Shown here one piece after another: positions 1 through 1,601 of a stretch of 1,601 bases of DNA. The notes under the pieces were generated by a model that worked only from the letters and a program-made list of their open reading frames with translations, did not search any database and was not told where the DNA came from. The first letter of the stretch is position 1. Each line of letters begins with the position of its first letter. A program made the translations under genes and the position numbers. The DNA is taken from NCBI RefSeq assembly GCF_003334335.1, contig NZ_QOWQ01000101.1, one strand, 5' to 3'. Origin of the DNA: Escherichia coli (GTDB taxonomy: Bacteria; Pseudomonadota; Gammaproteobacteria; Enterobacterales; Enterobacteriaceae).

Positions 1-1601
1 GAACTGGCCTACGCTCTCTGGCCTGGTGATGTGGATGCCGGAAACATTGACGGCAGCATCCATCGCTGGGCAAAAAAAGAAGTTATCGACAACGACCGCG
101 AAGACTGGAAGCGTATCTCGGCATCAATGCGCAAACAGCCTGATGCCCTTCGCTACGACCGCCAGACTATTTTTGGCCTTGTCCGTGAACGTCCGATCGA
201 CATTCACAAAGACCCTGTGGCACTGAACAAATACATTACTGAATACCTGACTACAAAGGGCGTGTTTGAAGATGAAGGAACAAATCAGAGCGCAACTGAT
301 ACTCTCTCGTCGCCAGTACCAGAAACTGATGCAGTGGAAACGGCAATTCCAGACAACGAAAAAACCGAATGCAAAGTGGAAGTCGAACCATCTGTAGAAC
401 GTGAGGGGCCGTTCTACTTCCTCTTCACCGACAAGGATGGCGAAAAATACGGTCGCGCAAACAAACTTTCTGGTCTGGATAAGGCGCTGTCTGCTGGGGC
501 TACTGAAATCACGAAAGAAGAATATTTCGCCCGCAAAAACGGTACATACTCAGGTTCACAACAAAATACTGGTGCATCTGACACGACCGCACAACCAGGG
601 TCAGTAAAAGTTACCGCTGACGAAGTAAACAAAATTATGCAGGCAGCCAATATCAGCCAGCCTGACGCCGATGAACTGCTTGCAGTATCACGTGGTGAAT
701 TTGTTGAAGGGATTAGCGACCCGAATGATCCGAAATGGGTTAAGGGGAACCAGACCCGCGATTCTGTGAACCAGAACCAGCAAGAAACGGAACAGAACGA
801 CCAGAAAGCGGAACAAAACAGCCCAAATGCGTTACAAAACGAGCCAGAAACGAAACAGCCTGAATCAGTGGCGCAACAGGAAGTGGAAAAAGTCTGCACC
901 GCCTGCGGTCAGACCGGCGGCAACTGCCCTGATTGTGGCGCGGTAATGGGCGACGCAACATACCAGGAAACATTCGATGAAGAGTATCAGCCTGAAGTTC
1001 AGGAAGATGATCCGGAGGAAATGGAAGGCGCTGAACATCCACACAAGGAGAACACTGGCGGCAATCAGCATCACAATAGCGATAATGAAACTGGCGAGAC
1101 GGCAGATCACCCAATTAAGGTGAACGGTCATCACGAAATCACATCCACCAGCAGGACGTGTGACCATCTAATGATCGACCTTGAAACCATGGGAAAAAAT
1201 CCTGATGCCCCGATCATCTCAATAGGTGCAATATTTTTCGATCCGCAAACCGGAGATATGGGACCGGAATTTAGTAAGACTATCGATCTGGAAACTGCTG
1301 GCGGAGTCATTGATCGGGACACCATTAAATGGTGGCTTAAGCAATCACGCGAAGCGCAATCTGCCATTATGACCGATGAAATCCCGTTAGATGATGCACT
1401 GTTACAATTGCGGGAATTTATCGACGAAAACTCCGGTGAATTTTTTGTTCAGGTTTGGGGAAATGGAGCCAACTTCGACAACACGATTTTGCGCCGTTCA
1501 TACGAACGGCAGGGGATCCCCTGCCCGTGGCGTTACTACAACGATCGCGATGTACGCACAATCGTTGAGCTGGGGAAAGCCATAGACTTCGATGCCAGAA
1601 C
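1..1601 (+). CDS. recE: Internal fragment (partial at both ends) of a large prophage RecE-like exonuclease (exodeoxyribonuclease VIII family) carrying a zinc-ribbon linker and a DnaQ-like 3'-5' exonuclease domain
   Basis: Frame 1 is open across the entire window (533 codons, no stop), while every other frame is broken by stops. Translation reads ELAYALWPGDVDAG...[25 protein letters not shown]...CTACGQTGGNCPDCGAVMGDATYQETF...DPEEMEGAEHPH...MIDLETMGKNPDAPIISIGAIFFDP...WGNGANFDNTILRRSYERQGIPCPWRYYNDRD...AIDFDAR. The segment from codon ~224 to ~348 closely resembles the RecE (Rac prophage) linker region as I recall it ([24 protein letters not shown]...CNACGQTGG.NCPDCGAVMGDATYQETF...DPEEMEGAEHPH). 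Symbol given as recE-like; the domain after the linker differs from canonical K-12 RecE. Confidence 0.6.
895..936 (+). other. Four-cysteine zinc-ribbon-like motif (C-x2-C-x6-C-x2-C) in the linker of the CDS
   Basis: Codons 299-312 read C-T-A-C-G-Q-T-G-G-N-C-P-D-C, with Cys at codons 299, 302, 309 and 312. It is embedded in otherwise acidic, Q/N-rich low-complexity sequence, typical of a small metal-binding knuckle. Confidence 0.55.
1171..1601 (+). other. DnaQ-like (DEDD superfamily) 3'-5' exonuclease domain within the long CDS, continuing past the window end
   Basis: Exo I-like motif M-I-D-L-E-T-M-G (nt 1171-1194, acidic D393/E395 in window codon numbering). Exo II-like motif W-G-N-G-A-N-F-D-N-T-I-L (nt 1456-1491, D493). 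Candidate Exo III Y-x3-D in W-R-Y-Y-N-D-R-D (nt 1528-1551). Spacing and hydrophobic beta-strand context (PIISIGAIFFDP) fit the RNase T / DnaQ / Rv2179c-like fold. Confidence 0.7.

Follow-up and report, generated by a model that had tools for sequence, protein, structure and literature searches.

The stretch of DNA analysed here (the window, 1,601 nucleotides in full) encodes part of a putative nuclease, and the question it raises is which residues complete the active site of that enzyme. A sequence-only reading of nt 1171–1551 had proposed a complete catalytic motif set, with D393-x-E395 as Exo I, D493 as Exo II and Y513-x3-D517 as a possible DEDDy-type motif III. We assign this segment with high confidence to a DEDDh 3′-5′ exonuclease domain with a DnaQ fold, from the Rv2179c-like/T4 DexA family. 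It encodes the N-terminal three quarters of this domain, whose active site would consist of D645, E647, D745, H795, and D800 in full-length numbering (window residue n + 252). The features are listed in Table 1.

Table 1. Features of the window and of the gene to which it belongs. Motif residues in the first column carry window numbers.
Feature	Full-length numbering	Window position (nt)	Strand	Basis
Internal part of the 822-aa prophage gene	codons 253–785	1..1601	+	frame 1 free of stops
RecE-like middle region, not nuclease	residues 262–624	28..1116	+	BLASTP against K-12 RecE residues 278–591
C299-x2-C302-x6-C309-x2-C312, zinc-ribbon/knuckle-like		895..936	+	direct reading; K-12 RecE has it as CNACGQTGGDNCPDC
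Rv2179c-like/DexA-like DEDDh 3′-5′ exonuclease domain, first ~145 of ~172 residues; overruns the window end		1165..1601	+	
Exo I, D393-L-E395, putative metal ligands	D645, E647	1177..1185	+	homologue columns; DexA/RNase T alignment
Exo II, W486-G-N-G-A-N-F-D493, putative metal ligand	D745	1456..1479	+	homologue columns; DexA/RNase T alignment
Y513-N-D-R-D517, not Exo III	Y765, D769	1537..1551	+	column counts; DexA alignment; model secondary structure
R519-T520, nearly invariant signature of the family, opening the helix that follows strand β5	R771, T772	1555..1560	+	129/131 each

The best match to the window was a 2,469-nt CDS of NZ_AP022815.1 (L001:4245-6713; WP_097518794.1), which is 99.8% identical and annotated as 'exonuclease'. 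Other copies of the gene carry the label '3′-5′ exonuclease'. The window was matched in 4,744 of 5,426 complete E. coli genomes, at a median of two places per genome, and in 30 phage records. In NZ_AP022815.1 the gene lies in a lambdoid prophage at ompW, with dicB and ydfD upstream and excisionase and integrase genes downstream. There it runs 112 nt beyond the window and ends with the C-terminus ...DARTAIPFEGERHNALDDARYQAKYVSAIWQKLIPNQADF before the stop codon (also quoted as ...FEGERHNALDDARYQAKYVSAIWQKLIPNQADF). Its residues 1–256 (L001:4245-5012) are 99% identical to the Qin-prophage pseudogene ydfE of K-12, indicating that the gene is the intact form of ydfE. The K-12 copy is cut off by IS2E, and the window starts four codons ahead of the truncation point. 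Minus-strand and off-frame open reading frames within nt 1171–1551 were rejected as mechanical, since the coding region that contains them is strongly supported.

The 822-aa protein was searched against domain families. Pfam PF16473 ('3′-5′ exoribonuclease Rv2179c-like domain') matched residues 641–812 over model positions 2–177 of 177 (E 5.9e-67, 225 bits). Pfam RNase_T, a DEDDh family, gave a weak match over residues 643–806 (E 0.0012), the PADLOC 'DEDDh' model covered residues 642–806 (E 1.6e-5), and PHROG 2082 ('exonuclease') matched end to end. None of the DEDDy Pfam families matched the protein. The closest solved protein by sequence was T4 DexA (8KEL/8KEN), found with E 7.5e-8 by the single sequence and 2e-22 by the family profile. 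The family profile also matched DnaQ, the PolC exonuclease, Orn, and RNase T among PDB sequences via the same motifs. When the domain alone was compared with PDB sequences by phmmer, DexA was aligned only up to the RDIRT block, which leaves out motif III; the family profile placed that motif. Literature searches on PF16473 and on ydfE as an exonuclease returned nothing concerning the 822-aa protein.

For conservation analysis, relatives were collected from 1.84 billion cluster representatives (50%-identity clusters), yielding 12,170 sequences. The query and 130 whole-domain homologues from the best 150 of these were used for column counts (n = 131). Frame-1 translation placed D393, E395, D493, Y513, and D517 exactly where the sequence-only reading had located them. 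MIDLETMG starts at codon 391, with D393 at nt 1177–1179 and E395 at nt 1183–1185; ANFDNTIL starts at codon 490, with D493 at nt 1477–1479; and RYYNDRD starts at codon 511, with Y513 at nt 1537–1539 and D517 at nt 1549–1551. The assignment of Exo I and Exo II was also correct. D645 was conserved in 130/131 sequences and E647 in 128/131. For Exo II, the counts were 129/131 for D745, 130/131 for the Trp, and 126/131 for the Asn, and the Asp stands in the N-x2-F-D context expected of DEDDh enzymes. Exo I was aligned with D7/E9 of DexA and D23/E25 of RNase T, and Exo II with D119 of DexA and D125 of RNase T. Judged by the PF16473 match that contains them and by conservation in 128–130 of the 131 sequences, the two motifs are far above chance.

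The window itself holds neither the fourth acidic residue nor the general base, and the motif set is thus not complete within it. The sequence-only reading had advised checking whether the true motif III lies past nt 1601, and it does: H795-N-A-L-D-D800 was read from the 99.8%-identical full gene, 26–44 nt past the window end. H795 corresponds to window-equivalent nt 1627–1629 and D800 to nt 1642–1644, which are 10 and 15 codons past the last complete codon of the window. Near-identical copies suggest that the same motif follows in the source genome of the window. H795 was present in 131/131 sequences and D800 in 129/131, within a block reading G-x-x-H-N-A-L-D-D-A-x-x-Q.

The family profile aligned HnaldDA with H186-D-S-I-H-D191 of DexA. 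An hhalign comparison with E. coli RNase T (probability 64%) put H181/D186 on H795/D800, D23/E25 on D645/E647, and D125 on D745. The comparison with epsilon (probability 37%) covered Exo I to strand β5 and ended ahead of Exo III. No alignment was obtained with the Klenow exonuclease domain or RNase D (probability 0.2% and 0.1%, respectively). For DexA, the catalytic residues have been given as D7, D119, D191, and H186 and equated with D12, E14, D103, D167, and H162 of epsilon (PMC12153337). The Exo I glutamate of DexA appears as E12 in the text of that paper and as E9 in the sequence.

The 3D structure of the domain was modeled using AlphaFold 2. With the 77-sequence alignment A2, the model reached a pLDDT of 95.3 and a pTM of 0.90; single-sequence modeling was unusable (pLDDT 50). 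The model has a DnaQ/RNase H-like fold. H795 is located in the loop that leads into the last, long helix (helix 156–174 of the model), whose first turn contains D800. A loop His followed by an Asp in the first turn of the last helix is the usual layout of DEDDh enzymes; in DEDDy enzymes, the Tyr and Asp of Exo III share one helix, spaced by a single turn. The model had no conserved Y-x3-D in its Exo III helix. In fold comparison, the DEDDh structures were DexA (18.3), RNase T (17.3), Cap18 (16.7), the PolC exonuclease (15.6), REXO2 (15.5), epsilon (14.4), and Mtb 4hec (13.9), and the DEDDy structures were well below them (T7 polymerase, 10.1; Klenow, 9.1; RNase D, 8.2).

These data bear directly on the DEDDy proposal, in which Y513-x3-D517 would be Exo III and the Tyr would serve as general base as in the Klenow exonuclease or RNase D. 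The string does sit 20 residues past Exo II, and the D517 position is fairly conserved, with Asp in 103 of 131 sequences (79%). However, Tyr occupied the Y513 column in only 23 sequences (18%), and the other residues there were W in 60, R in 16, F in 7, A in 5, and S in 5. At the D517 column, Cys was found in 25 sequences (19%), including a 189-aa protein that is probably EcD, a nuclease reported active (PMC12153337). The two positions were not conserved as a pair. Y-x3-D is also expected by chance: at least one turned up in 29% of composition-preserving shuffles of the domain part (145 aa) and in 70% of those of the whole window (533 aa). It occurs once in the protein, as does H-x4-D (HNALDD), but the latter is the invariant one. 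In the model, Y765 is part of a three-residue helical turn and D769 ends a β strand, so the two do not share one helix as DEDDy residues do. Together with the missing profile alignment to Klenow or RNase D, the absence of DEDDy Pfam matches, and the low rank of DEDDy folds, these results leave the DEDDy proposal with next to no probability. The reference alignment puts the catalytic pair at H795/D800, downstream of nt 1601, and leaves Y513/D517 at non-catalytic positions. This is the outcome that the sequence-only reading had itself named as refuting its motif III, and the DEDDy proposal is refuted by it.

The sequence-only reading had added that a Tyr-type motif is more typical of DNA exonucleases than of RNase T-like enzymes. 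This argument is unsound, as many DEDDh enzymes act on DNA. The DEDDh class includes the DNA exonucleases epsilon, TREX1, Exo I, Exo X, and DexA. Because it holds so many of them, the presence of His or Tyr does not predict whether the substrate is DNA or RNA.

The alignments offered other roles for the two residues. Y513 was aligned with W152 of T4 DexA. This is a variable aromatic position, and by analogy with DexA, Y513 probably stacks against a base of the substrate, possibly reaching across a dimer. D517 was aligned with D156 of DexA, D150 of RNase T, and D129 of epsilon, which is the Asp of a 'D-[ST]' element ending strand β5. It closes this strand and is probably structural. Y513 and D517 should not be listed as catalytic residues.

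The residues that follow, R771 and T772, were more conserved than either Y513 or D517. T772 was invariant in alignment A2, and the pair opens the next helix in the model. RNase T and epsilon have the D-[ST] element, whereas the PF16473 family has R-T in its place. The DEDDh catalytic scheme leaves this pair unexplained.

T4 DexA, the closest solved relative, is ~21–23% identical to the domain in structural alignments; for RNase T and epsilon, classic DEDDh enzymes of a different Pfam family, the identity was ~17–18%. DexA is a stand-alone protein of 227 aa with extra loops, whereas the domain here is the C-terminal part of a protein of 822 aa. MD led to the proposal that W152 of DexA contacts 5hmC from the partner subunit, and the W152A enzyme was no longer active on T4 DNA but still acted on unmodified DNA (PMC12153337). 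The corresponding residue here is Tyr (Y765). D169 of DexA corresponds to A779 by profile alignment, in a loop that aligns with low confidence. D90 of DexA, a tetramer contact, corresponds to D717, so the Asp is kept here; EcD has A78 at this position.

EcD is an E. coli 'HREX' anti-T4 defence nuclease that was reported active and degrades DNA (PMC12153337). Using the published forward primer, we found a 189-aa stand-alone DEDDh protein in viral contigs L012, L013, L016, L019, L026, and L027 that is probably EcD. The identification is based on a 17/17-nt match of the forward primer, a match of the reverse primer minus one extra A, and A78, rather than on an accession. The reverse primer as published had no match in the viral contigs; compared with the loci, its printed sequence contains an additional A. 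The protein begins with MIDTET and ends at the reverse-primer site; its residue 78 is Ala, in agreement with the report on EcD (PMC12153337). It is 38% identical to our domain over its whole length (BLASTP E 1e-37) and keeps Exo I, Exo II, and H-x4-D (H-T-A-L-G-D). It reads PWCYWNERCMRP, compared with PWRYYNDRDVRT here; Trp thus replaces Y513 and Cys replaces D517, and R-P is found where R771-T772 stand in the 822-aa protein. If the 189-aa protein is EcD, Asp at the D517 position would be dispensable for catalysis, because this protein has Cys there and EcD was reported active.

HREX (EcD-like) nucleases are defence enzymes specific for 5hmC DNA, which they degrade selectively, and protect against T4. 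They are defined by Trp at the DexA W152 position and an acidic residue at the D169 position, which serve 5hmC recognition (PMC12153337), and by loss of the D90 tetramer contact. The 822-aa protein has Y765, A779, and D717 at these positions, respectively. With the residues for 5hmC recognition not conserved, it is not demonstrably of the HREX type.

In the DEDDh mechanism, two Mg2+ ions would be bound by the carboxylates of D645, E647, D745, and D800, as in epsilon, RNase T, and DexA. H795 would be the general base and would activate the water that removes the 3′-terminal nucleotide. The rest of the protein, a YdfE-type N-terminus followed by the RecE-like middle region, would serve as a non-catalytic scaffold.

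A domain of this kind could instead be a degenerate, inactive pseudo-nuclease that is retained as a binding module. Its home would fit, as cryptic prophages are often decaying and the K-12 copy is an IS2-truncated pseudogene, but the open reading frame was intact in the copies examined. The five DEDDh residues were intact as well, and so were the neighbouring motif residues T648, W738, N740, G741, F744, A797, A801, and Q804. We regard loss of activity as very unlikely. The sequence-only reading had considered the domain competent rather than degenerate; as judged from its residues, this view holds once the full gene with H795/D800 is read, whereas the inclusion of Y513/D517 in the catalytic set does not. 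By all sequence and fold criteria tested, the domain is a catalytically complete DEDDh member of the known PF16473 family. It is an ordinary feature, already annotated as an exonuclease in RefSeq. The arrangement of its catalytic residues is the textbook one for DEDDh enzymes, and the feature is of little importance beyond correct annotation.

The substrate would most likely be DNA, judged by the genomic slot and by the DexA and EcD relatives. This is not certain, because the founding member Rv2179c is named an exoribonuclease in the Pfam description. The same DEDDh chemistry could act physiologically on RNA, as in an Rv2179c-type exoribonuclease. The Pfam family is named after this 3′-5′ exoribonuclease of Mtb, RNase T and Orn rank among its nearest neighbours by fold, and several phage homologues are annotated as 3′-5′ exoribonucleases. 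However, T4 DexA, which comes nearest among solved proteins in sequence as well as in fold, is a DNA exonuclease, and the related EcD of E. coli degrades DNA (PMC12153337). The gene also occupies the recE slot and shares the RecE scaffold. We consider RNA the less probable substrate, though one that keeps some weight.

The middle region connects the protein to RecE, the exonuclease VIII of the Rac prophage. BLASTP of this region against residues 278–591 of K-12 RecE gave E 1e-59 and 39% identity, and by inspection the last ~150 residues were much more similar. No similarity to RecE residues 606–866 was found by BLASTP. The PD-(D/E)XK nuclease domain of RecE occupies the C-terminal part beyond the aligned region. 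The NCBIfam exoVIII model (NF007259) matched positions 271–602 only, with 267 bits against a cut-off of 1269, and the protein is therefore not a member of the RecE family by this model. The C-terminal nuclease of RecE is a 5′-3′ enzyme of the PD-(D/E)XK type, whereas the DEDDh domain here belongs to another superfamily and would have the opposite polarity, 3′-5′. Within the prophage, recE is placed much like the gene of the 822-aa protein, close to xis and int.

A sister protein, P0002 (805 aa, L030:5001-7418), has RecE residues 1–592 at 88% identity, followed by this DEDDh domain where RecE has its C-terminal nuclease. Its gene belongs to a Rac-like prophage and comes after sieB, kilR, and ydaE; an excisionase-like gene and an integrase are directly downstream. 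No recT followed the gene in the three loci examined (L001, the P0002 locus, and phage HannyBb). The RecE-like scaffold is thus found with nuclease modules of opposite polarity, and in these loci the DEDDh version lacks an annealase partner. A literature search for a RecE scaffold with a DEDDh domain found no paper on this combination. A very common E. coli prophage gene that joins a RecE-like scaffold to a DexA-like nuclease of opposite polarity, with no RecT, could merit a separate look.

A wider interpretation, speculative and on balance improbable, is that the RecE-type scaffold is a carrier for nuclease modules of opposite polarity, and that the DexA/EcD-like version without RecT acts as a prophage anti-phage nuclease discriminating modified or foreign DNA ends. 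If this were true, Y765, a Tyr in place of Trp at the base-contacting position, would give a specificity unlike that of EcD. The HREX-defining residues are not conserved in the 822-aa protein.

Two further observations concern the middle of the gene. A low-complexity linker rich in Q, N, and E (...NQNQQETEQNDQKAEQNSPNALQNEPETKQPE..., about nt 760–890 of the window) lies between the conserved block and the cysteine cluster. The cluster may bind a metal. In a comparison with phage HannyBb, 86 of 374 codons differed in the middle of the gene (residues 257–630, window 13–1134), compared with 1 of 256 in the N-terminus and 6 of 192 in the nuclease domain, where dN/dS therefore has just these six differing codons to draw on. 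This pattern suggests mosaic recombination inside the gene.
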